Shown here: positions 6,102 through 50,546 of the stretch, one piece after another | Numbering within the stretch: the stretch's first letter is position 1 | How the letters are laid out: each line of letters starts with the position of its first letter | NCBI GenBank assembly: GCA_002686365.1 | Contig: NZBZ01000004.1 | Location: 98,752 to 162,751 of the forward strand | From: a bacterium | Lineage (GTDB): Bacteria > Patescibacteriota > Minisyncoccia > UBA6257 > GWB1-50-10 | Direction of reading: 5' to 3' | DNA: 64,000 nucleotides | Translations under genes and position numbers: made by a program | Notes under the pieces: generated by a model | What the model was told of the DNA's origin: nothing | Seen by the model: the letters and a program-made list of their open reading frames with translations, nothing else | The model's database searches: none

Positions 6102-7174
6102 AGAAAAAATTACGCATAGCCATGTTTTGTTCTACTGAGTGGCCAACACCGCCTCCTCAGGACGTTATATTTGCTCCCTTGTGGATTCATTATTATGTTG
6201 CTGAGGGGTTGGCAAAGCGGGGACATGAAGTTTTTTATTTCGGACCTAAGGAGTCGAAGATGAAATATGCTAAGTTGGTATCTTGTGATATGTCTGCCAT
6301 GAGGAATAATACTGAGCTTTTTCCCCTTGTTAGCATGAAAACTAGATGGGAGGCTGTTATTTTTTATGAACAGACGTTTATTTCTAAAATGTATGAGATG
6401 AATTCAAAGAAGAAATTTGATGTTATCCATACTTATCGTAATAGTTTTCCTTTTGCCTCCCTTACAAAAACTCCTACTGTTGTAACTATCCATGATCCTA
6501 TTGAGAAGATTCGAAAATATAGATATGAGTGGACTCGTCAGTTTCCGCAAATTCATTTTATTTCTATTTCAGATGCGCAGCGGAGTCCTGCTCCTGATTT
6601 GAATTATCTGGATACGATTTATCACGGGATAGATCTTCGTAGGTTTCAATTTAACGCGAAGCCGGATGATTATTTTGTTATTGCCGGTCGGATGCTTCAG
6701 AGAAAGGGGATTGGTATTGCAATACAAGTTGCTAAGAAAGCTGGCGTGAAGCTTAAGATTGCCGGCGGTCCTGCGAAGGGTTTGTACTGGGAGAAGAGTA
6801 TTAAACCGTATCTTGGTAAGGATATAGAGTATGTGGGAATGGTGGATTATTATTGCATGGGTGATTTTTTCCGCAAAGCAAAAGGCTTTATTTCTCCTCA
6901 GCGTTGGAATGAGCCGTTTGGACTTACGTTTGTTGAGGCAATGGCATGCGGGACGCCCGTTATTACTTTTCACCGAGGATCTGCGCCTGAGGTTGTGGCC
7001 CATGGAAAGACAGGCTTTGTCGTGCGTAGTGTTCCGCAGATGATTGAGGCAATAAAGAATGTGGATACAATTAAGCGCGAAGATTGCCGGAAGCACGTTG
7101 AAGAACATTTTTCTGTTAAGAAGATGGTGGATCGTTATGAGGAGGTTTTTCTGAAATTAGCAGAGAGCAAGTAG
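6098..7174 (+). CDS. Glycosyltransferase family 4 (paralog)
   Basis: [40 protein letters not shown] 4-nt overlap with the upstream gene indicates translational coupling. Confidence 0.75.
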   Translation: MKKKLRIAMFCSTEWPTPPPQDVIFAPLWIHYYVAEGLAKRGHEVFYFGPKESKMKYAKLVSCDMSAMRNNTELFPLVSMKTRWEAVIFYEQTFISKMYEMNSKKKFDVIHTYRNSFPFASLTKTPTVVTIHDPIEKIRKYRYEWTRQFPQIHFISISDAQRSPAPDLNYLDTIYHGIDLRRFQFNAKPDDYFVIAGRMLQRKGIGIAIQVAKKAGVKLKIAGGPAKGLYWEKSIKPYLGKDIEYVGMVDYYCMGDFFRKAKGFISPQRWNEPFGLTFVEAMACGTPVITFHRGSAPEVVAHGKTGFVVRSVPQMIEAIKNVDTIKREDCRKHVEEHFSVKKMVDRYEEVFLKLAESK

Positions 7175-7237
7175 TGCTTTCGTGGTACTATATAAGATAA
7201 GGGGCGTAAGATAGCATTTTATATTAGTAGATAGTTT

Positions 7238-8434
7238 ATGAGGAAACAGCTCAAAATTGGCTTGGTACTTCCTTCAATGTATGCGGCACGGCGTTTTGCC
7301 AAGCGTATTTTTGCTCCCAAGGAGCTGCTTGCGGAATTAGGGAATTCTTTTCTAGAGAAGGGGCATAAGGTGTATGCGTATACTTCTCCGGGAGTTCTTC
7401 CTGACAAAATTACTTTTGGCGGAGATTTGGAGTTGGAAAATAAGACTATTCCGTCAGCTTGGGATATGGGCGAGAAAAGCAGGCCTCCTGCTTCTGCTGC
7501 TTCGCAGATTAATATTCGGAATGCGCGCGCATATGAGGCAACTGTTATGAGGCAGGCGGTTTTGGATGCGAATAGACGCGGACTTGATATTCTGCATGTG
7601 TATCTTGGGGATAGTCCGCATCAGTTTGTGCCGTTTGCGAACATGCCAGTCGTATTTACCGTACATGATCCTGTGTGGCCGGGAACGCTTGAAGCATGGT
7701 CTTTTAAGACGTTTGCTCAGCATAATTATATAAACATATCTCATTCACAGGCAGGTCAGTATAAAAAGGCATTTGGATTTCGGAACTCTATCGTGATTCA
7801 TCATGGAGTTGATTTAGATGATTTTTCTTTTTCTGAGAGTCCTCGTGGCGAATATGTTTCTTTTATCGGCCGGTACTTGGCAAAGAAGGGTGTTGAGGAA
7901 GCAATTCGGACAGCGCAGTCATTGAAGATTCCGCTTCTGATGGCCTCGAGTAAGGGGTATCGTACGTCAAAATATTACCAGAATCATATACGTCCTCATC
8001 TTTCTTCTCGGCTTGTCACAAGGGTTGGTTTTTTGACTCCTCATAAGAGAAATGAGTTTCTTCGGAATTCAAAGGCATTTCTTTTCCCAATCAAGTGGCC
8101 TGAGCCGTTTGGAATGGTGATGATTGAGGCAATGGCGTGCGGGACTCCTGTTGTTGCATTCGCAGAAGGGTCAGTGCCGGAAGTTGTAAAGGATGGTAAG
8201 ACTGGGTTTGTTGTAAGGCGTACTCCAGAAGCAAAAGGTAATTATATTGTGAAAAAGATTGGCATGGCAGGATTTAAGGAGGCAGTAAAGAGAGTTTATG
8301 ATATGAGTCCCGAAGAGTACAAGAAGATGCGTAATGAGTGTAGGGCTCATGTTGAGAAGTATTTTACGATTGAGAAGATGGCAGAGAATCATGAGAAGGC
8401 ATATAGGCACTTTATTAAAAGGTGGAAGAAATAG
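7238..8434 (+). CDS. Glycosyltransferase family 4 (paralog)
   Basis: [39 protein letters not shown]. Confidence 0.7.
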
Positions 8435-8457: not shown

Positions 8458-9720
8458 ATGCGGCAAACAGAACTTTTTACTAGAACTAGGAAAGAGGCGC
8501 CTAAAGATGAGGTGTCAGTAAATGCGCGGCTTTTAATGCGTGCTGGTTTTGTGAATAAGCTTATGGCTGGGGTATATTCCCTGCTTCCTTTGGGCTTGCG
8601 TGTGCATCAGAAGATAGAGAATATTATTCGTCGAGAGATGGATGCGATCGGGGGGCAGGAGCTTTTAATGCCTACGCTTCAGCCAAAGGCGAATTGGGAT
8701 AAGACAGACAGGTGGGAGACATATGACTCTCTCTTTCGATTTACGAGTCATTACACAAAGAATGAGTATGCTTTAGGTCCTACGCATGAGGAGGTGGTAA
8801 CGCCTCTGGTTCAGGATCAGAATCTCTCGTATAAGGATTTTCCTGTTTATGTATATCAGATTCAGACTAAGTTTCGGGATGAGCCAAGAGCAAAGTCCGG
8901 GCTTTTGAGGGGCAGAGAGTTTTCTATGAAGGATTTGTACTCATTTCATACGAATGAGAAGGACTTGGAGAAGTATTATGAGAAGGCAAGAGATGCGTAC
9001 TTTAAGATTTTTAAAGAGGTTGGACTTGGTGATGTGACGTACTTAACTTTTGCGTCAGGCGGGTCGTTTTCAAAGTACTCCCACGAGTTTCAGACAGTTA
9101 CAGATGCTGGAGAGGATATTATTTACTTGTGTAATAAGTGTAAGGTGGCAGTTAATAAGGAGATTATTCATGAGCAGAAGGACTGCCCAGAGTGCGGAGA
9201 GAAGAAGCTAAAAGAGGAGAAGGCAGTTGAAGTTGGAAATATATTTAAGTTAAAGACTAAGTATTCGTCTGCGTTTGGGTTGAAGTTTAAGGATGAGAAG
9301 GGAAAAGAGGGAGATGTAATAATGGGGTGTTATGGAATTGGGCTGACTCGGCTTTTGGGTACGGTTGTTGAGGCTCATTATGATAAGGATGGGATGATTT
9401 GGCCTGAGGCAGTTGCGCCATTTGCAGTACATCTTATTCGGCTTGGGATAGATTCTAAGGTAGTGAAGTTTGCAGATGATGTTTATAAAAAACTTGAGAA
9501 GAATAATGTTGAAGTTTTATATGATGACAGGGACGCGTCAGCTGGAGAGAAGTTTGCTGATTCAGATTTGATTGGGATTCCTTATCGGGTTGTGGTTAGT
9601 GAGAAGACCCTTCGACAGGCTCAGGGCAAGCTGGAAAAGAAGAAGGTTGAGTTAAAAAAGAGAAGTGAGAAGAAGGAGAAGTTGGTTGGGGTAGATGAGT
9701 TAATGAAGTTGGGGGCATAG
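8458..9720 (+). CDS. proS: Prolyl-tRNA synthetase, short form without the INS editing domain
   Basis: N-terminus MRQTELFTRTRKEAPKDEVSVNARLLMRAGFVNKLMAGVYSLLPLGLRVHQKIENIIRREMD matches bacterial ProRS. A zinc-ribbon CNKCK...CPECGEKK and a C-terminal anticodon-binding region are present. The track's GTG start at 8422 overlaps the upstream gene, so the ATG at 8458 is more likely. Confidence 0.8.
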   Translation: MRQTELFTRTRKEAPKDEVSVNARLLMRAGFVNKLMAGVYSLLPLGLRVHQKIENIIRREMDAIGGQELLMPTLQPKANWDKTDRWETYDSLFRFTSHYTKNEYALGPTHEEVVTPLVQDQNLSYKDFPVYVYQIQTKFRDEPRAKSGLLRGREFSMKDLYSFHTNEKDLEKYYEKARDAYFKIFKEVGLGDVTYLTFASGGSFSKYSHEFQTVTDAGEDIIYLCNKCKVAVNKEIIHEQKDCPECGEKKLKEEKAVEVGNIFKLKTKYSSAFGLKFKDEKGKEGDVIMGCYGIGLTRLLGTVVEAHYDKDGMIWPEAVAPFAVHLIRLGIDSKVVKFADDVYKKLEKNNVEVLYDDRDASAGEKFADSDLIGIPYRVVVSEKTLRQAQGKLEKKKVELKKRSEKKEKLVGVDELMKLGA

Positions 9721-9726
9721 GAAAGA

Positions 9727-9886
9727 TCTCTTTTTCTCGTTCGTAAGTCTCCACACATTAAAATTCTTTATTCGCTCATTACGGCAATTTGCCGCCCTGT
9801 TTCGCTTTGCTCCACGGGCACCCGGCAAATTGTCTATTCGCTCATAGAATTTAAGATGTGTTTCAACACACTCACTCTGAAAAAAA
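9727..9886 (+). repeat. Interspersed repeat family A, copy 1 (~160 bp); other copies at 48329-48485 and 63338-63495
   Basis: The copies are ~95% identical and each starts 1-9 nt after a stop codon (proS, uppS, and the hypothetical gene ending at 63336). The element carries a 12-bp inverted repeat, CGGCAATTTGCCG versus CGGCAAATTGCC, and an internal ATTCGCTCAT direct repeat. No ORF is conserved across the copies. Confidence 0.7.
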
Positions 9887-9957
9887 GTTCTTTCCTAAAG
9901 GGGAAGATGGTTTTTGTAATCTTCTGTGGGGAGGTGGTGGGAGGGCTGTTGGTGGCT

Positions 9958-9996
9958 CACTTCGTCCCGATTGGGGACTCGTGAGCTTTTTTATAT
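9958..9996 (+). terminator. Two-tier terminator hairpin GCTCAC-TTCG-TCCC...GGGAC-TCG-TGAGC plus T-run
   Basis: Followed by TTTTTTATAT. The equivalent hairpin at 63528-63570 has compensatory base changes in the inner stem (GTCCC/GGGAC versus TTCCG/CGGAA). Confidence 0.55.
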
Positions 9997-10037
9997 AAAA
10001 AAATACCCACCAAAGCGTGGGTGCTGGTGGGGTTGAG

Positions 10038-10385
10038 TCAGATGTGGAGGAGAATTGCTGCAGTACCGAGGAACGTGACGATGGCGCAGAAGATTGCGAG
10101 GCAGTTCATTGCTTGGGCAGTTCTCTTGCTCCAAGGTCTTCCTGCATCGTCGTCTATCTGTGCGAATATCCACACGTCCAGATTGAACAGGATGGTGCCG
10201 ATGGCGAACAAGAGTGCCGCCCCGATCCAGTTCGAGATCATGGCGTTTTCTTGTGCGCCTACCATGGCTCCTGAGAGACATATAAACGCTGTGATCAGAC
10301 TGACGAGGCCGGCAATGAAGGTTGCGTCGCGGCCACTGGTCTCGTGATTGCCACTTTTGTGTATTGCGGCAGCAGCGGCGGTCAT
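10038..10385 (-). CDS. Small membrane protein (115 aa); N-terminus paralogous to the 54-aa ORF at 10795-10959
   Basis: The N-terminus MTAAAAAIHKSGNHE... is followed by hydrophobic segments. The local GC content looks clearly higher than the genome background. Confidence 0.45.
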   Translation of the reverse strand: MTAAAAAIHKSGNHETSGRDATFIAGLVSLITAFICLSGAMVGAQENAMISNWIGAALLFAIGTILFNLDVWIFAQIDDDAGRPWSKRTAQAMNCLAIFCAIVTFLGTAAILLHI

Positions 10386-10433
10386 TGTGCGTTCCTTCTC
10401 GGTTAGGCGGCGGATGGCTTGTGTCCGTACGTA

Positions 10434-10751
10434 CTAGCCTCCGAAGATTAGGAAGTAGATGAGCCCTACGGCTCCGCAGAGCGCGTTGACGCCGAGGATC
10501 GTTGCAGCGTTGTAGAGTCTTCTGCGCATGTCGGGCTTTGGCTCGTTCTTTAGCCCTCCCATTCCTATCATCAGGATGAAAATGACACCGATGTAGAGCG
10601 TGAAGCCGGCGGAGTGATACCAGTGCCAGTTCGTGAGGCCTGGGGTTCCGCGTACGGCGAGTACGTTCGCCCAGAAGGAGAAGAATCCTGCAATGAGACC
10701 GAAGACAGTGTACGCGGAGAGCGAGAAGTTTCTTCGAAATGCGTCGGTCAT
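10434..10751 (-). CDS. Small membrane protein (105 aa)
   Basis: Three predicted TM segments (for example GLIAGFFSFWANVLAV and FTLYIGVIFILMIGMGGL). Same strand and same GC-rich block as its neighbours. Confidence 0.45.
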   Translation of the reverse strand: MTDAFRRNFSLSAYTVFGLIAGFFSFWANVLAVRGTPGLTNWHWYHSAGFTLYIGVIFILMIGMGGLKNEPKPDMRRRLYNAATILGVNALCGAVGLIYFLIFGG

Positions 10752-10794
10752 TGTCAGATCCCTTCGGGTTGCGGTGTGTGTGGGTGGTTTTGAG

Positions 10795-10959
10795 TTACGG
10801 GTTGAGGTAGATGTGGTAGAGAATTCCTGCAGTGCCTAGGATCGCGCTGCCCGCGTAGAAGGTTATGATGACTCCTGCGGTGATGTAGGTGATGAGGGCT
10901 ATGGCGCGATCGATGAGCCCATTGTTGCCACTCTTGTGTGTCGCTGCAGCAGCGGTCAT
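10795..10959 (-). CDS. Small membrane protein (54 aa), absent from the ORF track because it is under 60 aa
   Basis: Hand translation gives MTAAAATHKSGNNGLIDRAIALITYITAGVIITFYAGSAILGTAGILYHIYLNP. Its N-terminus is shared with the 115-aa ORF, and its start overlaps the upstream ORF's stop (ATGA). Confidence 0.4.
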   Translation of the reverse strand: MTAAAATHKSGNNGLIDRAIALITYITAGVIITFYAGSAILGTAGILYHIYLNP

Positions 10960-11153
10960 GGCGTGATCCTTTTAAGTGTTGTCGGACAGATGGGAACAAG
11001 TTTGAGTATTGTTATACGCAGCGCTATGGCGCCCACCATAACATCCAGTATGCTGTGAGAGTTGGCAACTCCGTATGCTGTGATCAGCAAGCTTGCGACA
11101 AAGAACAGCATTGTGAAGATGTATAGGGTGGACCACTTGACCTTTGTCTGCAT
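10956..11153 (-). CDS. Small membrane protein (65 aa), first gene of the - strand four-gene mini-operon
   Basis: MQTKVKWSTLYIFTMLFFVASLLITAYGVANSHSILDVMVGAIAL... is a hydrophobic helix. It is divergent from mreB. Confidence 0.35.
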   Translation of the reverse strand: MQTKVKWSTLYIFTMLFFVASLLITAYGVANSHSILDVMVGAIALRITILKLVPICPTTLKRITP

Positions 11154-11237
11154 CTACATGAAGTTCTTTGCCTCCAGGCCTTCAGTTTGGGTCGCTGAAA
11201 TTACTCTACATATTTTTGTTTTTAGTGTCAATTTTTA

Positions 11238-11266
11238 TTGATATCCTTTTTTTCTTGCAGTAGAAT
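11238..11266 (+). promoter_or_regulatory. Sigma-70-like promoter for mreB (-35 TTGATA, 17-nt spacer, -10 TAGAAT) with a near-leaderless start
   Basis: TTGATA at 11238-11243 and TAGAAT at 11261-11266. The mreB ATG at 11276 is only 9 nt after the -10 box. Confidence 0.4.
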
Positions 11267-11275
11267 CAGAGGACT

Positions 11276-12310
11276 ATGACTTTGAAGAAAATAGTAGGAA
11301 TTGACCTTGGAACAGACTCTACAAGGGTGTATTTGCGGAGAGCTGGGATTGTTGTTGATGAGCCGTCTATTGTTGCATTTAATAATAGGACTAATAGGAT
11401 TATTGCGGTTGGTCTTGAGGCTAAGCGTATGATGTCTCGGACTCCTACACACATCACTGCTATTCGTTCTATTGTGCATGGGATTGTTGGGGATTTTGAT
11501 ATGGCTCGGGAGATGCTTCAGAAACTTTTGCAGAATAAGAATCTTCCATGGTCTTGGATGACAGAGGTTGCGCTTTCTGTTCCTACGAATCTTACTGAGG
11601 TTGAGCGGAAGTCATTTGAAGATCTTGTGCGGGAGGCTGGTGCTGGACAGGTTTATTTAGTGGAGCAGCCGTTACTCGCAGCGCTCGGAAGCGGTCTTGA
11701 TATTTATCAGCCAACAGCCTACTTGGTGGTGGATATTGGGGCAGGGACGACTGATATGGCAGTTGTATCTATGAATGGCATTGTGATTTCTAAGCGTTTG
11801 AAGATTGCCGGGAATCATTTTAATAATGAGATTATTAGGGCAGTGCGGGACGAGATGAAGCTTCATATTGGAGAGCCTACTGCGGAGGAAATAAAGATTG
11901 GTGTGGGATCCGCGATTCCGCAGGAGGAGCGGCTTGAGATTATGGTTCGGGGTCGGGATGTGGCATCGGGGCTTCCTCGCGAGCTCACTGTGAAGGATGT
12001 GCAAGTCAGGACGTGGCTTGTTCGGTCCCTGAAGCTTATTCTTGAGAGCGTTCGGGATCTTGTTGAAGAGACTCCTCCGGAGCTTGTTGGAGATGTGCAT
12101 AAAAATGGAATATATATATGCGGAGGAGGAAGTCTTCTTCGCGGAATTGATGAATTGCTCGAGCGAGAGATTGGTGTTGAGGTGAAAGTTGTTGAGGATC
12201 CTCTTCATTGTGTTGCGCGCGGAGCAGGGATGATTGCCGATGACATGAAGACCTACCAGCCGATTCTTAATACATTTTCAAGCCTTGGTATTGGAGATGA
12301 GTCTGAATAA
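11276..12310 (+). CDS. mreB: Rod shape-determining protein MreB
   Basis: MTLKKIVGIDLGTDSTRVYL...; actin-like ATPase motifs; 344 aa. Confidence 0.85.
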   Translation: MTLKKIVGIDLGTDSTRVYLRRAGIVVDEPSIVAFNNRTNRIIAVGLEAKRMMSRTPTHITAIRSIVHGIVGDFDMAREMLQKLLQNKNLPWSWMTEVALSVPTNLTEVERKSFEDLVREAGAGQVYLVEQPLLAALGSGLDIYQPTAYLVVDIGAGTTDMAVVSMNGIVISKRLKIAGNHFNNEIIRAVRDEMKLHIGEPTAEEIKIGVGSAIPQEERLEIMVRGRDVASGLPRELTVKDVQVRTWLVRSLKLILESVRDLVEETPPELVGDVHKNGIYICGGGSLLRGIDELLEREIGVEVKVVEDPLHCVARGAGMIADDMKTYQPILNTFSSLGIGDESE

Positions 12311-37506: not shown

Positions 37507-39051
37507 ATGAAAAAGTTTCTAATATTTTTTCTCATTATTTTGATTGGGATTGTGGTGGGGGTGTTTTTGCTTACATCTCGTGATGAGGAGTCTGCATATG
37601 ATACGGTTGAGGCAGAAAGAACCGAGCTTATTCAGGAGGTTAATGTAACAGGAAGTGTTCGGCCTGCTGATGAGGTTCAGCTTGCGTTTGAGAAGGCAGG
37701 AAAGGTTACTTCAGTTTTGGCTCGTGTGGGGAGTCAGGTTCGCACTGGGGATTCGCTTGTTCGGCTTGATAGTGATGAGCTTGAGGCTCAGCTTGCAGGA
37801 GCAGAGGCAACGCTTCAGAAACGAAATGCTGAGCTTGATGAGCTTCTTCGCGGAACTCGTGAAGAGGAGGTGAAGATAAAGGAGTCTGAGCTTGATACAG
37901 CAAAACAGACTCTTCAGAATTATTATGATAATGCACTTACTGTTTTGGACGATGTATATTTGAAGGCGGATGACGCGGTTCTTACTAAGACTGCCGGAGT
38001 TTTTCAGGGCACTGGAGGGGCAAGTATTTATAGTCTTACATTTACGACATGCAATAGTGAGTTGGAGCTGGATGTTGTTGCAGGAAGGGTTCAGAGCGCG
38101 GATAAGCTGAATTCTTGGCTTGGAGAATTAAATGAGTTTGACTCTGGTTTTATTCAGTCTGAGCTTGATGATGCTTTTCAGAGCAGTAAGGCGTATCTCA
38201 CATTTTTCAGAGGCTTTTTGGATGATGTGAGCGCGGCGCTTACTGATAATTGTGTGGCAGATGATTCCTCTTTGGATACATATCGTACAGCTGTAAGTAC
38301 AGCCCGTACGAATATTCTTACAGCGCTTACTTCTATAGATAGTCAGGAACAGGATATTGCTTCACAGAAGATAGCAGTTCAGTCTGCCTTAGACGAGCTT
38401 GATTTGAAGCTTGCTGGCTCAAGGCCGGAGCAGATTTCAGCGCAGAGAGCATTGGTGCTGCAGGCAGAGGCAGATATTGATGTTATTGAGGCTCAAATTA
38501 TAAAGACTGTGCTTATCTCACCTATTGATGGTGTTGTGACATTGCGGGATGTTGAGGTTGGAGAGATTGTGTCTGCCAATACATCAGTTGTTTCTATTAT
38601 TTCTGATGGCGCGTTTGAGATTGAGGCGAATATCCCAGAAGTTGATATTGCAAATGTTAGGGCGGGAAATTTGGCAGAGGTTACTCTTGATCCATATGGA
38701 GATGATGTGAAGTTCAGGGCAAAGGTGCTTTCTATTGATCCTGCAGAGACGGTTATTGACGGCGTTGTTACTTACAAGACTACTCTGCTTTTTGAGGAAG
38801 ATGATTCCCGCATAAGGTCTGGGATGACTGCAAATGTTGATATTCTTACTGCTGAGCGATTTGGTGTGATTACTATTCCTCAACGGACAGTTATATTTAA
38901 GAATGGCTCGAAGATTGTTCGTCTGCTTGAAGGAGAAAAGGTAGTAGAGACAGAGGTTCGCACTGGTCTTAGCGGAACTCATGGAGAGATTGAGATTCTG
39001 GATGGGATTCAGGAAGGGGATATTATTGTTACCTCAATTAGAGAAAAATAA
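37507..39051 (+). CDS. Periplasmic adaptor / membrane-fusion protein (HlyD/MacA-like)
   Basis: N-terminal TM segment, a long coiled-coil (LEAQLAGAEATLQKRNAELDELL...) and C-terminal beta-barrel domains. Confidence 0.7.
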   Translation: MKKFLIFFLIILIGIVVGVFLLTSRDEESAYDTVEAERTELIQEVNVTGSVRPADEVQLAFEKAGKVTSVLARVGSQVRTGDSLVRLDSDELEAQLAGAEATLQKRNAELDELLRGTREEEVKIKESELDTAKQTLQNYYDNALTVLDDVYLKADDAVLTKTAGVFQGTGGASIYSLTFTTCNSELELDVVAGRVQSADKLNSWLGELNEFDSGFIQSELDDAFQSSKAYLTFFRGFLDDVSAALTDNCVADDSSLDTYRTAVSTARTNILTALTSIDSQEQDIASQKIAVQSALDELDLKLAGSRPEQISAQRALVLQAEADIDVIEAQIIKTVLISPIDGVVTLRDVEVGEIVSANTSVVSIISDGAFEIEANIPEVDIANVRAGNLAEVTLDPYGDDVKFRAKVLSIDPAETVIDGVVTYKTTLLFEEDDSRIRSGMTANVDILTAERFGVITIPQRTVIFKNGSKIVRLLEGEKVVETEVRTGLSGTHGEIEILDGIQEGDIIVTSIREK

Positions 39052-39178
39052 TAAATAATAAATGCGTAGCGGATACCCACGCACTCATTTTGTAAACGTG
39101 TAGAGTAGGAGACGGCAAAATGAGTGCGGGATGCTCATATTTCTAGCTACTCGCTGCGCTCGTAAAGAAATATGGCAC

Positions 39179-39901
39179 ATGGCACTCATTGAGGTCAATG
39201 ACTTAGAGAAAACCTATTTTGGAGAGGAGGTAGAGACGCGCGTACTTCACGGGCTTACTTTTGATATTAAAGAGGGCGAGTTTGTAACGATTATGGGTCC
39301 ATCCGGCTCTGGCAAATCTACTCTTATGCATATTTTGGGATTTTTGGACAGATTGACTGGGGGGCGGTATATATTTGACGGGAAGAATGTTGATACGTTT
39401 TCAGACAAGGAGCTTGCTTTGCTTCGCGGTGAGCAGATTGGATTTGTTTTTCAGGCATTTAACTTATTGCCTCGGACTACTTTGTTTGAGAATGTGAAAC
39501 TTCCTCTTACTTATATTAAGAGGCGCGGGAGTATGAAGGACAGGGTTGAGAGCGTGCTTGAAAGTGTTGGGCTTTCTCATCGGCTTCATTATTATACTAA
39601 TCAGATTTCTGGAGGTGAGCAGCAGAGAGCTGCGATTGCGCGCGCCTTAGTGAATGAGCCGTCTGTTGTATTTGCTGATGAGCCCACCGGGAATCTGGAT
39701 TCAAAGTCCGGAGCGCAGGTTATAGAGGTTTTGCAGAAATTAAATGACGCGGGTACTACTATTATCTTGGTTACTCATGATGGGAATCTTGCAAAGAGCG
39801 CAAAGAGGATAATTCATATAAAGGATGGGCTCATTACTACTGATAGTGAGGTAAAGCACAGGAGGATTGCTCGGGATGGGGAGATACATATTAGCGAGTG
39901 A
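39179..39901 (+). CDS. ABC transporter ATP-binding protein (MacB/LolD-type)
   Basis: Walker A GPSGSGKST; signature LSGGEQQRAAIARAL; Walker B VVFADEPTGNLD. The ATG at 39179 is preferred over the track's 39131. Confidence 0.85.
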   Translation: MALIEVNDLEKTYFGEEVETRVLHGLTFDIKEGEFVTIMGPSGSGKSTLMHILGFLDRLTGGRYIFDGKNVDTFSDKELALLRGEQIGFVFQAFNLLPRTTLFENVKLPLTYIKRRGSMKDRVESVLESVGLSHRLHYYTNQISGGEQQRAAIARALVNEPSVVFADEPTGNLDSKSGAQVIEVLQKLNDAGTTIILVTHDGNLAKSAKRIIHIKDGLITTDSEVKHRRIARDGEIHISE

Positions 39902-39951
39902 CCTGTAACGTGGGACCAGTAACCAGTAATTTGTAACCTGTAGTTCGTACA

Positions 39952-41205
39952 ATGATTCAGATGTTTGCACAATCTGTTCGGATGGCAATTACTGCTCTCC
40001 TTTCTAACAAAGGAAGGAGCTTTTTAACTATGCTTGGGATTATTATTGGTGTTTCAGCTGTGATTATTATTGTTTCTATTGGGGCTGGAGCGCAGAGTAT
40101 GATTTTGTCGCAGATTGAGGATTTGGGAACTAATCTGGTTGGCGTTATGCCCGGATATTCTGAAGAGGGTTCTCCTCCTACTTCTGTTATGGGCATTGTT
40201 ATTACTACTCTTACCTATGAAGATGCGATGGCTTTGGGGGAGAAGAGAAATGTTCCGAATATTGTAGAGGCGGTTGCGTATTATAAGAGTGTTGGGACTG
40301 TGACGTGGAGGTCTGAGTCGTATGATACGAATTTGAATGGTGTGAGTGCGGGCTATCTTGATGTGGAGGGCGGTGAGATAGAGAAGGGACGATTTTTTAC
40401 AGAAGAGGAGGAGAGAACTTTGGGAAGAGTTGCAATTTTGGGCAGCGCTGTTCGAGATGAGCTCTTTGGCCCGTCTGAAGCAATAGGGCAGAAGGTAAAG
40501 ATTGAGAATCAGGCATTTGAGGTGATTGGAGTTATGGAGGAGCGTGGGGTTGTTGCTATGCAGGATTATGATGATCAGGTGTTTGTTCCGGTTCGTACTA
40601 TGCAGAAACTCGTTGCAGGCGTAAATCATCTAGGGCTTATTCGCGCTAAAGTTGATTCAGAGGATAATATAAATGCTGCATTGGAAGACATTAGAGCAGT
40701 GCTTAGGGAGCGTCATGATATTCGGGATTCGAGCGGGGCAGGTGATGATTTTACGGTTCGGAGCGCAACGCAGGCGCTTGAGATGATTACTTCTATTACT
40801 GATGGGCTTAGATTTTTTCTTGCTGGAATGGCAGCTCTTTCTTTGATTGTTGGGGGGGTGGGAATAATGAATATTATGCTTATCTCTGTTGCAGAGAGGA
40901 CGCGGGAGATTGGTTTGCGTAAGGCGATTGGCGCGGACAATCTTCATGTGTTTATTCAATTTTTGGCAGAGGCGATTACCATTACTGTTTTGAGCGGAGC
41001 TTTGGGAGTTGTTGGCGGAATTCTTATCTCGTATCTTATCTCGCTTGGCGTGCAGTTTGCCGGATTTGACTGGGAGTTTATTGTTTCTCCTTTTTCAGTA
41101 GGCTTGGCTTTATCAGTATCTCTTTTTGTTGGACTTTTGTTTGGTATGTATCCCGCAAGTAAGGCGTCTCGGCTCGATCCTATTGATGCTTTACGATACG
41201 AATAG
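39952..41205 (+). CDS. ABC transporter permease, MacB periplasmic core domain + FtsX
   Basis: N-terminal TM segment, a large periplasmic domain and a C-terminal FtsX four-TM bundle (...AIGADNLHVFIQFLAEAITI...). Confidence 0.75.
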   Translation: MIQMFAQSVRMAITALLSNKGRSFLTMLGIIIGVSAVIIIVSIGAGAQSMILSQIEDLGTNLVGVMPGYSEEGSPPTSVMGIVITTLTYEDAMALGEKRNVPNIVEAVAYYKSVGTVTWRSESYDTNLNGVSAGYLDVEGGEIEKGRFFTEEEERTLGRVAILGSAVRDELFGPSEAIGQKVKIENQAFEVIGVMEERGVVAMQDYDDQVFVPVRTMQKLVAGVNHLGLIRAKVDSEDNINAALEDIRAVLRERHDIRDSSGAGDDFTVRSATQALEMITSITDGLRFFLAGMAALSLIVGGVGIMNIMLISVAERTREIGLRKAIGADNLHVFIQFLAEAITITVLSGALGVVGGILISYLISLGVQFAGFDWEFIVSPFSVGLALSVSLFVGLLFGMYPASKASRLDPIDALRYE

Positions 41206-41231
41206 GACATAAGATATAGGACATAAGACAC

Positions 41232-42521
41232 ATGAGATTTTTAATACTTTTTAAAATTTCAATTAAGGCCATGCATTCGAATCTTGTTCGGACTGGTCTT
41301 ACAGTTTTAGGAATGGTGATTGGTATTGCAACTATTGTTGTTGTATTTTCCGCAGGAGAAGGTGTTCGCGGGCTTCTACTTGGACAGATTGAGGCGTTTG
41401 GTACTGATGTGATTGAGACAGAGATTAAGGTTCCTTCCAGTAAGACTGGGGGAGCGAGTGAGCGGCAGAGCGCTACAAATCTTGCCCAGGGTGTTCAGGT
41501 TACTACTCTTACTTTGGATGATATGGAGGATATTATGAGGTTGCCTAATGTGAAGGATGGATATGCTGGAATTATGAGTCAGGAGACGGTTAGTTATGAG
41601 GGGGAGAGGAGGAAGGCATTTCTTTTGGGCGCGAGCGCGAGCTATATTGATATTGATCAGAGTGAGATGGGTGAGGGGCGGTTTTTCACTGATGGAGAGG
41701 ATCGTTCCCTTTCTCCTGTTGTTGTTTTGGGTACGAAGATGAAGGAGATACTTTTTGGAGAGAGTGATGCTATTGGGAGGTCTGTTAAGATTCGGGATGC
41801 CAAGTACAGGGTGATAGGCATTATGGAGGAGCGGGGCGCGGTTATGGGTATAGACTTTGATGATTTTGTGTATATGCCTTTAGAGACTCTCCAGAAGCGG
41901 GTGTCGGGGATTGGTCACATTCTTTATATGGTTCATCAGCTGCATGATTTAGAGATTGCAGAGGAGACTGCAGAGGATATTCGGGCTATTTTGAGGATGA
42001 ATCATAGTATTCCGCCTCCTGCCTTGGATGAGAAAAGGGGATGGGCTGATACAGGCAAGGATGATTTTCGAGTAATGACTATGGCTGAGGCTATGGATGT
42101 ATGGGAGAACATTATGAGTACCCTTACTATTCTTTTGCTTGGCATTGTGGCTGTCTCTCTTGTGGTTGGCGGAGTTGGGATTATGAATGTGATGTACGTT
42201 ATTGTTACAGAAAGGACGCACGAGATTGGTTTGCGTAAGGCAGTTGGAGCAAAGTATTCGGATATTATGTGGCAGTTTTTGATTGAGGCAGTTCTTATTG
42301 CTCTTACTGGAGGGATTGTTGGTATTATTCTTGGGTTGCTTCTTTCATATGGAATGTCTATTGGGGCGGGCTCGTATGGTTTGGATTGGGGCTTTTCAGT
42401 GCCTATTCAGGCGTTTGTTGTATCAATTCTTTTCTCTTTTGGATTTGGAATACTTTTTGGAGTTTTCCCTGCGCGAAAAGCAGCGCGAATGGATCCTATT
42501 GTTGCGCTTAGAAGTGAATAG
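41232..42521 (+). CDS. ABC transporter permease, MacB periplasmic core domain + FtsX (paralog)
   Basis: Same architecture as the preceding permease. Confidence 0.75.
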   Translation: MRFLILFKISIKAMHSNLVRTGLTVLGMVIGIATIVVVFSAGEGVRGLLLGQIEAFGTDVIETEIKVPSSKTGGASERQSATNLAQGVQVTTLTLDDMEDIMRLPNVKDGYAGIMSQETVSYEGERRKAFLLGASASYIDIDQSEMGEGRFFTDGEDRSLSPVVVLGTKMKEILFGESDAIGRSVKIRDAKYRVIGIMEERGAVMGIDFDDFVYMPLETLQKRVSGIGHILYMVHQLHDLEIAEETAEDIRAILRMNHSIPPPALDEKRGWADTGKDDFRVMTMAEAMDVWENIMSTLTILLLGIVAVSLVVGGVGIMNVMYVIVTERTHEIGLRKAVGAKYSDIMWQFLIEAVLIALTGGIVGIILGLLLSYGMSIGAGSYGLDWGFSVPIQAFVVSILFSFGFGILFGVFPARKAARMDPIVALRSE

Positions 42522-42532
42522 GTTGTTTGGAA

Positions 42533-44335
42533 TTAGGCAACTTCTTTTTGGTAGCAAGTCTCGCAGTAGACAATTTCTTTTCGTTCTGGGTCGTAGGATG
42601 TTTCGAATTCATTTGTACATCGTCCTTCTGGATGGTGTTCGTGTTTTGCGGAATTTTTGTATACTTCGTAGTCACATACGCACTGTCTATGCCAGAGTTT
42701 TAATGGGGTTCGTTTTGCAAGGCGCGCGTAATGCCTACAGTTTGGGCAGAGGCGAGGAAGGGGGAGCGATGCGTTTTTATACATCTGGAGTTCCTCGGGC
42801 AGAATACGGAATGCTGTTGTGCACTGGTGTGTGCATTTTCCCCCATGTTCGCATCCTATGATGTCTTTCGTTATAGAAGTTGGTGCGTTTTCTATATTGT
42901 CTGGCAGGGTCTCTGTTGGAAGGGAAATTTTATAATTTTTGGTTTCTGGCTCATTCCATTGGTATCCTTGTTTTTCTATCTCGTTTTTTGAGAGTGGAAA
43001 AAATTCTTGACTTAACGATTCATTATATGCGTGAGGTGAGCAATTAAATGGAAAGAATTCGCCGTAGCGGTATTTTTTTTCTTTTGTGTCTGTGTATGGT
43101 ATTGCATTCATCTGCTCTATTATTTCCGGAACAAGTTTTTCGTATTCCTCTTTTGAGTATTTCTTATTTAAGATGTAGTATTCTGCGTTTTGAAGACCAA
43201 TACATCCGAAAAGGTTTTTTGAGTTGTGGCAGTTCATTACATATTGGCTTTCTGTAAGTCCGCTCCAGCATTCGTGTGCAAATGCGACATTCGAGCATTG
43301 GATTCCTATGTTTACGGCTTCGTAGATGAGTTCTGACTCTTTTCCCCAATATGTATAGTCCATTACATCTTTTGCTCCGCTTATTGCAAAGCAATATCGT
43401 CCGTCTTCGACGTCGAGTGAGCTAAATGAATCCCGTAGGTTTTTTGAGTTCTCAATCCAGTTTCCGCTTACGTTTTTATTTCGGTGGCCCGAGATTGCGG
43501 GGACTATGAATTGCTTTCGAAAATCTTGAAATTTTGCGTGGATCCCCGCGAGCGTAAGTGCACTTCCGGATCGGAGTGGCTGAACCATTTTTTCGTATTC
43601 TTCTTTGGAGTATTGCTTATTCCAAATGCAGTAGTTTTTGTTTCTGAGATTGACGCACCCAAAGCAGTTTTGGCAATTTATGCAGTCCATAAGAAACCAA
43701 GAGTCTATGCAGTTTGAAGATTCTTCAGAAAATGCCGTTTGGTAGCATTGCACGCAGTCAATGCATTCGTAGCATTGTTCGGACTTTTGGACGTTGTAGC
43801 AGTCCATACATTCTTTGGAGTCGTTCAGCCACACGCTGTATTTGCAAAATTCATCGTTGATGGCTCCGAAGACTAGGTAGCAGTTTCGCATGTCCGTTAC
43901 TCGATTGGTATATTCGCTGTCTGTATTATTTCCTTGTTGAATTGTACCTGGCCTAGGTACAGCGTGGAGAAGTTCTTTGAATTGTTTGAAGAATGGTTTT
44001 GATGGATTATATTCTTTTGCATATGATTTTGGGTCCCATGTATCAGACCACCAGCATTCTTTGCAGTAGACCGTATATGGGGCGTTTGTGTGGTACATGA
44101 AGATTTTTTCCTTTTTACAGAGATCGCAGGTGCGTTTGTAGAGCGACCTCTCATTTCGGAAAGTCATTCGTCGTACGAGGCGGCACTCTGGGCACCATGT
44201 TGGCGGAGGGGTTTTTACCTTCTCGTAGAAATCGAGGTCGTCAGGAGTGATTTGGAAGTCTGTGTTGCAGTTTGCGCACTTTTTGGTTTCTGTAGTCATG
44301 CTGGGATTATATCTTGTTTTTTTGCGCGAGTACAT
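42533..44335 (-). CDS. Large cysteine-rich protein (~600 aa) with multiple CxxC zinc-ribbon pairs and an internal duplication
   Basis: N-terminal CANC...CPEC and CDLC...CKEC. The central repeats NCQNCFGCVNLRNKNYCIWNKQYSKEEYEKMV and NCHNSKNLFGCIGLQNAEYYILNKKYSKEEYEKLV are duplicates. C-terminal CPNC...CVC. The ATG at 44335 is preferred because the track's first ~84 codons look like low-complexity read-through. Confidence 0.5.
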   Translation of the reverse strand: MYSRKKTRYNPSMTTETKKCANCNTDFQITPDDLDFYEKVKTPPPTWCPECRLVRRMTFRNERSLYKRTCDLCKKEKIFMYHTNAPYTVYCKECWWSDTWDPKSYAKEYNPSKPFFKQFKELLHAVPRPGTIQQGNNTDSEYTNRVTDMRNCYLVFGAINDEFCKYSVWLNDSKECMDCYNVQKSEQCYECIDCVQCYQTAFSEESSNCIDSWFLMDCINCQNCFGCVNLRNKNYCIWNKQYSKEEYEKMVQPLRSGSALTLAGIHAKFQDFRKQFIVPAISGHRNKNVSGNWIENSKNLRDSFSSLDVEDGRYCFAISGAKDVMDYTYWGKESELIYEAVNIGIQCSNVAFAHECWSGLTESQYVMNCHNSKNLFGCIGLQNAEYYILNKKYSKEEYEKLVPEIIEQMNAIPYTDTKEKKYRYGEFFPFNCSPHAYNESLSQEFFPLSKNEIEKQGYQWNEPETKNYKISLPTETLPDNIENAPTSITKDIIGCEHGGKCTHQCTTAFRILPEELQMYKNASLPLPRLCPNCRHYARLAKRTPLKLWHRQCVCDYEVYKNSAKHEHHPEGRCTNEFETSYDPERKEIVYCETCYQKEVA

Positions 44336-44375
44336 ATTGTTTGCTTTCCCAGCCTTCTCTTTGTAGACTGGATAG

Positions 44376-44942
44376 ATGAGTGATACAGAGATTGAAATTA
44401 AGGTTGGGGTAGAGCATACAGACAAGCTTTTAGAATTCTTGGAGAAGGAGGGAAAGTTTTTAGGAGAAAGACAACAGAAGGATGAGTATTTTACTCCAGC
44501 ACATCGTGACTTTTTGAAAGTGCGGCCTGTTAAGGAGTGGCTTCGTTTGCGGGATGCGGATGGGCAGTGTTCTTTCACGTACAAGAACTATTACTATGAT
44601 GAGCGCGGCAAGAGTAGTCATTGTGATGAGTATGAGGCGGAACTTACAAGCATGGATCAGTCTAAGAAGATGTTTAACGCGCTTGATTTTAAATCTATCT
44701 GCTTGGTGGATAAGGTACGGAGGAGTTGGATGTATAAGGATTATGAAGTATCACTCGACTCGGTGAAGGATTTAGGAGATTTTGTGGAAATTGAGTATAA
44801 AGGCAAGGATGAGAACGTGGAGCCAAAAAAGGTAACAGCAGATATGGTGAAGTTTTTAAAGGATTTGGGGTGCGGAAAGATTCAGAGGGATTATGTTGGG
44901 TATCCGTTTCTTTTAATGTTTCCAGATGAGGCAGATAGGTAG
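44376..44942 (+). CDS. CYTH-domain protein (class IV adenylate cyclase CyaB / triphosphate-tunnel metalloenzyme-like)
   Basis: The N-terminal EIEIKV motif is the hallmark of the CYTH tunnel (ExExK). 188 aa. Confidence 0.55.
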   Translation: MSDTEIEIKVGVEHTDKLLEFLEKEGKFLGERQQKDEYFTPAHRDFLKVRPVKEWLRLRDADGQCSFTYKNYYYDERGKSSHCDEYEAELTSMDQSKKMFNALDFKSICLVDKVRRSWMYKDYEVSLDSVKDLGDFVEIEYKGKDENVEPKKVTADMVKFLKDLGCGKIQRDYVGYPFLLMFPDEADR

Positions 44943-44993: not shown

Positions 44994-45308
44994 ATGGATC
45001 ATTATCTAAAACTTGAGCTTGCAGCAACGTCTGAGGAAGAGGCAGGACAATTTTTGGATGTGCTCTTGGAAAAGCATTTAGTTGCGGGCGGACACCTTTT
45101 TCCTGGTGAGACGCGGCATTGGTGGAAAGGAAAAATTGATATTGCGAAGTATTGGTATGTGAAGGCGTATACAGTTTCTGCTCACAAAAAGAAAATTATT
45201 TCGGAGATTGAGTCTATTTCAAAAGACGAGGTTCCGGGTATCGTGTTTTATGAAATCAGTTCTGCGAATGAGAGCTTTTTGAAGTGGATTCGAGATAATA
45301 CATTATGA
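44994..45308 (+). CDS. cutA: Divalent-cation tolerance protein CutA-like
   Basis: ...HLVAGGHLFPGETRHWWKGKI...DEVPGIVFYEI...FLKWIRDN fits the CutA1 pattern (AC..Q.P..S.Y.WKG.I...HPYE.PE...YL.WI). Confidence 0.45.
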   Translation: MDHYLKLELAATSEEEAGQFLDVLLEKHLVAGGHLFPGETRHWWKGKIDIAKYWYVKAYTVSAHKKKIISEIESISKDEVPGIVFYEISSANESFLKWIRDNTL

Positions 45309-49865: not shown

Positions 49866-49894
49866 AAAAGGAGCTCTCATGAGCTCCTTTTGAG
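49866..49894 (+). terminator. Terminator hairpin AAGGAGCTC-TCAT-GAGCTCCTT plus TTTT
   Basis: 9-bp stem followed by a U-run, directly after tRNA-Pro. Confidence 0.5.
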
Positions 49895-50019
49895 ACTCTA
49901 TGTGGTCGGGAATCGAAGGGAACCCCGACATTTATCGTCGGGGTGGGGGAGCGGGATTCCCGGCCTCCTATTGAGCGACGTGAGATTCCCCGGCCCGACA
50001 GCGATTTTTATAGATTTTT

Positions 50020-50054
50020 ATAACATTTCCTACGATCGTAGGAAATGTTATAAT
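50020..50054 (+). promoter_or_regulatory. 32-bp perfect palindrome ATAACATTTCCTACGA|TCGTAGGAAATGTTAT overlapping a TATAAT (50049-50054) 6 nt before the start codon: candidate autoregulated, leaderless promoter-operator
   Basis: Perfect 16-bp arms with the same ACGATCGT core as hairpins 26518, 27085 and 50556. Confidence 0.45.
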
Positions 50055-50060
50055 TTGTGT

Positions 50061-50546
50061 ATGGCTTTTAATAATGATTTGCTTACAGTTCTTTTTCGCA
50101 ACACGATGAGCTATAAACTGCTTAGGGAGTTTGCGCATAAACGTCGTCAAAAAGAAGTAAAGGATTCGGTTTTGCGAACAACTCTCTATCGTTTACGAAA
50201 ACAGGGCTTGGTTGTTCAAAAAGATGGAAAGTGGAGCATAACAAATCTAGGTAAGGACTTTTTGAAACGTAAGGAAAAGGCAAAGATTTGGGAGCATGGT
50301 TTGTACGACAAGTCTTTACGTGAGCGTGACAAGAATATGATTATTGCTTTTGATATTCCAGAATCTGAAAGGAGAAAACGGGATTGGTTAAGAGTTGAGC
50401 TGCGTCTTCTTGGCTTTGATCCTATTCAGAAGAGTGTTTGGTTTGGTCCATATCCGTTGCCTCGAGAGTTTATTCAGTCTTTGGGTAAATTGGAGCTTAT
50501 TACGTACTTGAAGTTTTTTCGTGCTCGGAAAGATGAGGTTGTTTGA
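50061..50546 (+). CDS. Winged-helix + Cas2/PaaX-like domain protein (161 aa), paralog 2
   Basis: MAFNNDLLTVLF...TLYRLRKQGLVVQKDGKWSITNLGKDF...MIIAFDIPESERRKRDWLRVELRLLGFDPIQKSVWFGPYPLP. It aligns end to end with 26556-27056. The ATG at 50061 is preferred; the track's 49890 start runs through repeat sequence. Confidence 0.5.
   Translation: MAFNNDLLTVLFRNTMSYKLLREFAHKRRQKEVKDSVLRTTLYRLRKQGLVVQKDGKWSITNLGKDFLKRKEKAKIWEHGLYDKSLRERDKNMIIAFDIPESERRKRDWLRVELRLLGFDPIQKSVWFGPYPLPREFIQSLGKLELITYLKFFRARKDEVV

Follow-up and report, generated by a model that had tools for sequence, protein, structure and literature searches.

Patescibacteria are ultra-small bacteria whose genomes measure about 1 Mb and whose lineage-specific proteins are for the most part unexplained. 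Client families that share a terminal module are known for ATPases of the FtsK/VirD4 type, examples being the Xanthomonas X-Tfe proteins (module XVIPCD) and the PE/PPE proteins of ESX. In Patescibacteria, 5,713 VirD4-like type IV coupling proteins (T4CPs) have been reported from 2,918 genomes, about two per genome, with 148 of them near virB4; according to the same authors, exaptation of these T4CPs cannot be ruled out (PMC12102498). Here we analyse a 64,000-nucleotide stretch of patescibacterial DNA (contig NZBZ01000004.1, positions 98,752 to 162,751; hereafter, the window) that carries on its minus strand a gene for a large cysteine-rich (Cys-rich) protein, together with the protein family to which this gene belongs. 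A preliminary description of the window had proposed that the gene might form a signalling pair with a divergent CYTH gene. We find that the family is genetically linked to orphan membrane-associated ATPases of the VirD4/TraD type, and not to CYTH.

The genomic context was surveyed in the best-scoring 80 GTDB species-representative loci with 10-kb flanks, taken from a larger number of matches and biased to the class of the query, with open reading frames (ORFs) called by a simple longest-ORF rule. When ORFs outside the family were clustered across these 80 loci, the commonest neighbour by far was a VirD4/TraD-like ATPase matching the Pfam families TrwB_AAD_bind, T4SS-DNA_transf, TraG-D_C and DUF87; its similarity to the NCBIfam models for VirD4-like CD1115, TraD and CedD was sub-threshold, and in PADLOC it showed generic mad8/HerA similarity only. 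Walker-A genes within 10 kb numbered 33, spread over 27 of the 80 loci, and were adjacent and co-directional in 19. A census of 149 random proteins encoded within two genes of family members returned TrwB_AAD_bind (16), DUF87 (15), T4SS-DNA_transf (13), TraG-D_C (10), zf_Tbcl_2 (7) and PaaX_M (5), while every other listed Pfam family had at most four members and was of housekeeping type. Because Patescibacteria carry about two T4CPs per genome (PMC12102498) and 33 ATPase genes were met in the 1.28 Mb surveyed, enrichment near the family would be about tenfold if genomes of about 1 Mb are assumed. A reverse search, in which an ATPase alignment was run against JGI/ENA metagenomes and 80 loci were taken, placed a family member in 32 of the 80 ATPase loci, and within 600 bp in 19 of those 32; for ATPases at least 68% identical to the query, the count from the listing was 22 of 32 loci with a family member.

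The ATPase genes stand in three kinds of context, namely (1) SecF, a sigma-like HARE-HTH gene, a protein of 450 amino acids (aa), a small protein of 172 aa, a 490-aa ATPase and then the array of family members; (2) DnaK, one gene, a 700-aa ATPase and the array; and (3) the array, a 500-aa ATPase, DnaJ and a further family member. The C-terminal tail of the 700-aa ATPase matches zf_Tbcl_2 (E 8.5e-11) and TIGR04272 (44.8 versus 36 bits), above both thresholds. In locus L007, the 450-aa protein (6642-7994) is hydrophobic at its N-terminus, draws no Pfam hit by itself and clusters by BLAST with fused ATPases; a fused 789-aa form of the 450-aa protein and the ATPase occurs in L003, its N-terminal part annotated as DUF8128. 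The small protein of about 172 aa that follows it in L007 (7995-8513) likewise has a hydrophobic N-terminus and carries an Rx4H HEPN-like motif, with a weak PADLOC match to CARF_HEPN (0.0026). Both genes lie between the sigma-like gene and the ATPase in L007, and the same order is seen in L005, L019, L030, L032, L038 and L055.

The family itself is large and was met here in Patescibacteria only. More than 5,900 homologs were found in a 90% clustered database, and every taxon-named one is from Patescibacteria (Liptonbacteria, Jorgensenbacteria, Nomurabacteria, Staskawiczbacteria, Paceibacteria and others), nearly all labelled 'hypothetical protein'; an exhaustive profile search gave 4,806 clusters (50% identity) at E ≤ 1e-3 and 2,027 at E ≤ 1e-30. 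Of the 80 loci, 30 carried one copy, 38 carried 2-4 and 12 carried 5-12, so that at least two were present in 50 with a maximum of 12, and these are lower bounds because single-query tblastn can miss divergent paralogs. All 231 of 231 copies were co-directional within their arrays, with a median gap of 42 bp. Loci L008 and L026 overlap on JALLOO010000001.1 (about 415-28965; AH-259-L05), where 16 tandem co-directional copies occupy 28.5 kb, several of them with start and stop codons that touch or overlap; since the locus ends within the last copy, the array may be longer. Between array members of several loci lie small conserved ORFs (DUF5674, and others of about 90-100 aa with no assignment), for example in L003 (3278-4178) and L007 (19581-19880). 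Among 171 members with a paralog in the same locus, 98% are closer to a protein from another genome than to that paralog (median identity 58% versus 44%), and 161 belong to a subfamily different from those of their array mates, with roughly 13-20 subfamilies overall. By these sequence comparisons the paralogs are ancient and diverged and form ortholog groups, and recent amplification or arrays of the antigenic-variation type were rejected on this ground. The subfamily of the window protein has 19 sampled members, one per locus.

The gene in the window and the parts of its product are as follows.

42533..44299, minus strand: coding sequence of the Cys-rich protein from the ORF list, 588 aa plus stop (MAF79749.1, 'hypothetical protein CL629_01580')
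44045..44278, minus strand: N-terminal double zinc-finger module (aa 8-85), from Cys positions and hhalign; predicted local distance difference test score (pLDDT) 85-92
43571..43909, minus strand: predicted β-solenoid repeat 1 (aa 131-243), made of about eight turns of 12 residues each, with the cap NCxxCFGCxNLRNKxYCIxNxxYSKEEY
43121..43465, minus strand: predicted β-solenoid repeat 2 (aa 279-393), a divergent duplicate of repeat 1 ending in FGCxGLxxxxYxILNKxYSKEEY
42854..43120, minus strand: α/β connector (aa 394-482) with the motif YGEFFPxxxSPFxYNET; pLDDT 83-94
42545..42853, minus strand: C-terminal double zinc-finger module (aa 483-585), from hhalign homology to the N-terminal module; stops three residues before the stop codon

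The product is a 100% match to MAF79749.1 (P0001, the NCBI call of 588 aa). The Met at 44299 (MTTETKK), which is also the NCBI choice, is the likely start, and the Met1 column is 94% conserved among 205 family members; an alternative upstream ATG at 44335, used in the ENA call, gives 600 aa. The preliminary description was right about a minus-strand ORF, and its length of about 600 aa is obtained only from that upstream ATG; the more than 50 Cys that it counted come down to 38 (with 14 His), or to 43 in the full TTG ORF, whose 83-residue extension adds five as read from the translation. The motifs that it listed (CANC...CPEC, CDLC...CKEC, CPNC and CVC) and both of the repeat strings that it quoted are all present. 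The enrichment in Cys lies far above chance: Cys makes up 6.5% of the protein versus 0.54% in the pooled remaining ORFs of the window that reach 150 aa (46 in number), 12 times the window average, and the protein contains 13 CxxC motifs versus 2.4±1.5 in composition-preserving shuffles. Its net charge is -7, and the family median is -3.

Zinc-ribbon-like modules do stand at both ends of the protein, as the preliminary description had it, and they are two homologous double-finger modules (aa 8-85 and 483-585; hhalign 99.3%, E 1.3e-20). Finger 1 follows the pattern CxxC...P-x-P-x2-CPxCR-x3-R in both; in the N-terminal module it reads C8-x2-C11...C36-x2-C39, after which come the conserved R40 and R44, with C8, C11, C36 and C39 conserved at 98% or more across the family. 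Finger 2 of the N-terminal module, C58-x2-C61-x17-C79-x2-C82, has the exact CxxC-x17-CxxC spacing; its C-terminal counterpart retains the second half (C561-x17-C579-x2-C582) and has a degenerate first knuckle. The CxxC-R-x3-R motif is kept in both modules (R40 and R44; R522 at 100% and R526 at 97%). Between the modules, the central duplication reported earlier is borne out by hhalign (aa 131-243 versus 279-393, probability 99.5%, E 6.7e-23) and is not strictly tandem, a helical linker of about 35 residues dividing the two repeats. Repeat 1 is periodic at 12 residues, position 4 being Cys in most turns, and most of these Cys are replaced in repeat 2. Solenoid Cys are mostly unconserved in the family, only C209, C212 and C366 reaching at least 90%. 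Positions conserved at 91% or more family-wide comprise the finger Cys, Q106, P115, E150, D166, G279, D314, N378, Y381, G413, E503, R522 and R526 (G279, D314, N378 and Y381 at 95-100%), and the connector residues G413, P417, Y425, N426 and W448 are conserved throughout the family.

An AlphaFold2 model built with 52 homologs has a mean pLDDT of 77.6 and a predicted template modelling score (pTM) of 0.78. Confidence is high for the termini and for residues 380-530, and the two central repeats reach a pLDDT of only about 52-71, so the duplicated β-solenoid, its geometry included, is a low-confidence prediction for the core. A structure search found no fold match for the α/β connector. By hydropathy the protein has neither a hydrophobic segment nor a signal-like N-terminus (Kyte-Doolittle means over 19 residues peak at 0.88, and the protein begins with the polar sequence MTTETKKCANC); for this reason we take it to be cytoplasmic, which makes disulfides unlikely.

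The statement that the protein fits no known family from its sequence holds as well. Nothing scored above threshold in Pfam, NCBIfam, PHROGs or PADLOC (including its defence-system models), the weak matches to TIGR04041 (E 0.0083) and to phrog_15341 of unknown function (E 4.8e-7) being compositional; PDB searches by single sequence and by profile gave no match at E ≤ 10, and the core of about 400 aa is left uncovered by any match in Pfam, NCBIfam, PADLOC, PDB or Foldseek. For the fingers there is more to say. The C-terminal finger of three homologs (P0071, P0078 and P0107) matches zf_Tbcl_2 (PF23477) at about 33 bits versus a Pfam threshold of 27, while the window protein has no zf_Tbcl_2 hit at E ≤ 1 in Pfam; TIGR04272 is sub-threshold on the family finger (27.5 versus 36 bits), and zf_Tbcl (PF13451) stays below threshold on finger 1 (17.9-18.4 bits in the best homologs versus 24, and none in the window protein). 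Partial membership of the fingers in the zf_Tbcl_2/CxxC-x17-CxxC domains is suggested. Fingers of this type bind Zn, as determined by inductively coupled plasma mass spectrometry on two purified small proteins of Methanosarcina (PMC12704099), and the Cys-rich protein presumably binds zinc too. Of what the preliminary description suggested, metal binding is thus plausible, and a joint function with CYTH is not supported.

Several identities could be set aside. A radical-SAM maturase would be expected to show a Radical_SAM Pfam match or a CxxxCxxC motif, and neither is present (TIGR04041 scores 15.6 versus 250 bits). The CxxCxxCxxC runs recall a 4Fe-4S ferredoxin and are unconserved family-wide, with no Fer4 hit. 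The polar N-terminus, with no signal-like segment by simple hydropathy, argues against a secreted disulfide-rich adhesin, and a phage or plasmid origin was rejected because tblastn against GenBank phages and PLSDB plasmids gave nothing and IMG/VR held no relatives.

We propose that the Cys-rich protein is a cytoplasmic zinc-binding protein linked to the VirD4/TraD-like ATPase and acting as its adaptor or client, a reading to which we give a probability of roughly 0.4. The two terminal double-finger modules would clamp the duplicated β-solenoid and could serve as docking or recognition handles for the ATPase, an idea suggested by the zf_Tbcl_2 finger type that some of the ATPases share with the family. 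The double solenoid would provide a paralog-specific binding surface, and each paralog would therefore be a cargo-specific adaptor or a translocated client of the ATPase; the solitary copy in the window would have to act in trans. What the data show is the architecture, the family and its arrays, the ancient paralogy, the genetic linkage to the ATPase and the failure of the CYTH pairing to be conserved; zinc binding, cytoplasmic location, contact with the ATPase and translocation of any kind are what we infer at this point.

A number of observations weigh against this proposal. All of the evidence for the ATPase link comes from gene neighbourhood, and some of it could reflect synteny inherited along with housekeeping genes, among them SecDF, the sigma factor and DnaK/DnaJ. 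No ATPase was found within 10 kb in 53 of the 80 loci, and divergent ATPase clades mostly lack family neighbours. The window holds a single family copy, and together with its 10-kb flanks (84 kb in all) it contains neither an ATPase nor a second copy; since the ATPase is absent from the window, this partner was out of sight of the preliminary description. Channel families of type IV secretion systems (T4SSs), that is VirB4, VirB6 and VirB8, are not among the 25 commonest Pfam families of the 149-neighbour sample, and export through a T4SS is accordingly unsupported by co-location. This fits the small share of T4CPs (148 of 5,713) reported near virB4 (PMC12102498). Family members are uniform from end to end, in contrast to typical modular effectors, and in the solenoid parts the pLDDT of the model stays at about 60-70.

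The reading under which the window was first described concerns the immediate neighbours of the gene.

44300..44375, unstranded: 76-bp divergent spacer separating the Cys-rich and CYTH genes
44376..44942, plus strand: CYTH/class-IV-adenylate-cyclase-type gene, 188 aa (Pfam CYTH, TIGR00318)
44994..45308, plus strand: CutA1 gene (Pfam CutA1, E 2.4e-14), about 0.7 kb from the Cys-rich gene

Worked out as a signalling pair, that reading would have a nucleotide or polyphosphate signal made or hydrolysed by the CYTH protein and sensed by the Cys-rich protein. The CYTH gene is bona fide, with the reported EIEIKV at its N-terminus (EIEIK, an ExExK motif, at residues 6-10), a Pfam CYTH match at E 3.4e-22 (79.6 versus 23.2 bits) and 88.8 bits on TIGR00318 versus a cut-off of 57.95; it lies above both curated thresholds for its class, the class IV adenylate cyclases (CyaB), and shows nothing unusual, and its substrate could be ATP, triphosphate or thiamine triphosphate, between which the sequence cannot tell. 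The two genes are indeed divergent, at a distance of 76 bp because the conserved start lies at Met 44299, and the 40 bp given earlier applies only from ATG 44335. A promoter and terminator scan of the 76-bp spacer gave no promoter-like site and counts not above those of shuffles. The conservation that a signalling pair would lead one to expect was not found: no CYTH gene lies within 10 kb in any of the 80 loci (by tblastn, and by phmmer on called ORFs), and the closest ortholog examined (P0002, 60% identity, in L003/L004) has no CYTH neighbour. The only CYTH gene seen near a relative, in L002, is 4 kb off on the same strand with PGK and DHH genes between. Searches of the Cys-rich protein turned up no nucleotide-binding domain. 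A gap of 51 bp separates CYTH in the window from CutA1, which comes next and overlaps Tag by 4 bp, all co-directional, and for this reason CYTH more likely belongs to a plus-strand unit with CutA1 and Tag, with which it is probably transcribed. The adjacency of the Cys-rich and CYTH genes thus looks accidental. Loss of the pairing in relatives is an outcome that the preliminary description itself had named as refuting, and we regard a signalling pair as hardly credible. CutA1 is the only window neighbour shared with relatives, lying directly beside or inside Cys-rich arrays in six of the 80 loci, and in L002; its positions include L005 20131-20436, L034 6236-6541, L044 4702-5010, L080 9554-9982 and, near the array, L002 534-839.

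The remaining alternatives take the protein itself as their starting point. Four zinc fingers with conserved Arg could bind RNA or DNA, the paralogs then being sequence- or structure-specific regulators or RNA-processing cofactors that work independently of the ATPase. The CxxC-R-x3-R motif conserved in both modules would suit this, as would the naming of one homolog by one source as a 'Zn ribbon nucleic-acid-binding protein', the frequent sigma-like HARE-HTH and PaaX_M/winged helix-turn-helix neighbours, and structure matches of the fingers in BFVD that include HNH and zinc-ribbon proteins; we nevertheless consider it unlikely because the net charge is negative both here and in the family median, no characterised nucleic-acid-binding domain was matched in Pfam, NCBIfam, PDB or structure searches, and the specific adjacency to the ATPase would be left unexplained. 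Many non-redundant ancient paralogs in operon-like arrays, and homologous modules at the two termini, are also what one might expect of a putative polymer-forming β-solenoid in the manner of bactofilin or curli, with paralogs co-assembling as a hetero-oligomeric scaffold and finger modules serving as head-to-tail joints, but the pTM of 0.78 suggests a compact monomer and single-copy lineages exist, this window among them, so that such a scaffold seems quite improbable to us. The Cys ladder of repeat 1 might instead bind additional Zn or Fe-S and make the protein a metal buffer, a chaperone or an electron carrier. This would accord with its two CxxCxxCxxC runs, with the weak TIGR04041 similarity, which falls on the Fe-S region of a glycyl-radical activase, and with the recurrent adjacency of CutA1. 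The Fe-S idea is weakened by the mostly unconserved solenoid Cys, which repeat 2 has lost, and no Fer4 or Radical_SAM hit was obtained in Pfam; 13-20 conserved paralogs would moreover be hard to explain by metal buffering, and we hold a role of this kind to be very improbable. An adaptor or client of the ATPase remains the explanation that we prefer.

Other features of the window were noted in passing. The Cys-rich gene is among the few minus-strand genes, nearly all others being on the plus strand, and GC skew is positive throughout (1-64000). A MacA/MacB-type efflux operon (37507-42521) is convergent with it, the gene ends being 11 bp apart. A PaaX_M (Cas2-like) and winged-helix protein is encoded at 49890-50546, 5.6 kb from the Cys-rich gene, and belongs to the same family as a small array-side gene (L022 704-1276 and five further loci) that is typically divergent from dnaK. 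The segment 27842-34000 has a low GC content (0.35-0.37 versus about 0.43) and a reversed AT skew and begins right after tRNA-Ser(GGA); it encodes an 810-aa protein with PPDK_N and PEP-utilizers but no PEP-utilizers_C hit, a 275-aa protein of no family, a methyltransferase and an S51 peptidase, and may be an island inserted at the tRNA. Between a ProRS-like gene and mreB lies a GC-rich (about 0.50) stretch of 1.5 kb (9720-11276) with no long plus-strand ORF, three short minus-strand ORFs of odd composition and no credible Rfam match (best E 0.58). The window sequence recurs (L165-L168) in a 137-kb Tara Oceans scaffold, TARA_SAMEA2619974, and in contigs of the ENA assembly ERZ11848503, and on the strength of these matches the organism looks like a marine patescibacterium that has been sampled more than once.

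A search of the open-access literature brought up no account of the family or of any link between it and VirD4-like ATPases, although an earlier description is possible, and because of this we rate the uncharacterised family and its association, as judged from sequence, as lying outside known kinds. A family with arrays of up to at least 16 tandem genes, 13-20 conserved ortholog groups, about 4,800 clusters and no model for its core must be central to the biology of Patescibacteria. The linkage offers a testable handle on the role of orphan coupling proteins, a question raised previously (PMC12102498), and on how patescibacterial epibionts move macromolecules. It is conceivable, if somewhat doubtful, that the family, the orphan ATPases, the DUF8128-linked 450-aa protein and the small Rx4H protein together form an undescribed membrane machine for translocation or remodelling, met here in Patescibacteria only. 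If that were true, the machine would have the 13-20 ancient zinc-finger/solenoid paralogs as its cargo-specific adaptors or as clients that it exports, thousands of patescibacterial 'orphan T4CPs' would gain a function, and a large block of these tiny genomes (at least 28 kb and 16 genes in one genome) would amount to a single system. For the window itself the outcome is a negative one, the CYTH pairing looking coincidental and the local copy being a solitary family member.

Set against known systems, the family resembles X-Tfe/XVIPCD and PE/PPE in having many paralogs with conserved terminal modules beside an ATPase of the VirD4/FtsK superfamily. There is no homology between these families, and the comparison is a working analogy; members here are uniform over their full length and not modular, and no secretion channel genes are among their recurrent neighbour families; any export is putative. 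The core as modelled is like the narrow Cys-rich β-solenoids (insect antifreeze protein, spruce budworm 1m8n) in fold class only, and it has no sequence relationship to 1m8n, CsgA, bactofilin, LβH domains or dynactin p25/p27 (2-9% identity); the hexapeptide acyltransferase signature was not found in it. The fingers come nearer to something described, finger 2 of the N-terminal module having exactly the CxxC-x17-CxxC spacing of the domain found in small Zn-binding proteins such as Methanosarcina mazei A00184 and A01980 (zf_Tbcl_2/TIGR04272), but proteins of that kind stand alone at about 40-60 aa or consist of fingers repeated in tandem, whereas here two zf_Tbcl_2-type fingers, each with a zf_Tbcl-like partner, lie on either side of a core of about 400 aa that has no family. 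The VirB2-like pilin arrays of patescibacterial T4SS (PMC12102498; PMC12857230) are likewise tandem, divergent paralogs tied to components of the T4SS superfamily. Those pilins are small membrane or secreted proteins in variable copies beside virB4, whereas the Cys-rich proteins are of about 580 aa, have no transmembrane segment or signal by hydropathy, and lie beside orphan T4CP-like ATPases in conserved ortholog groups.

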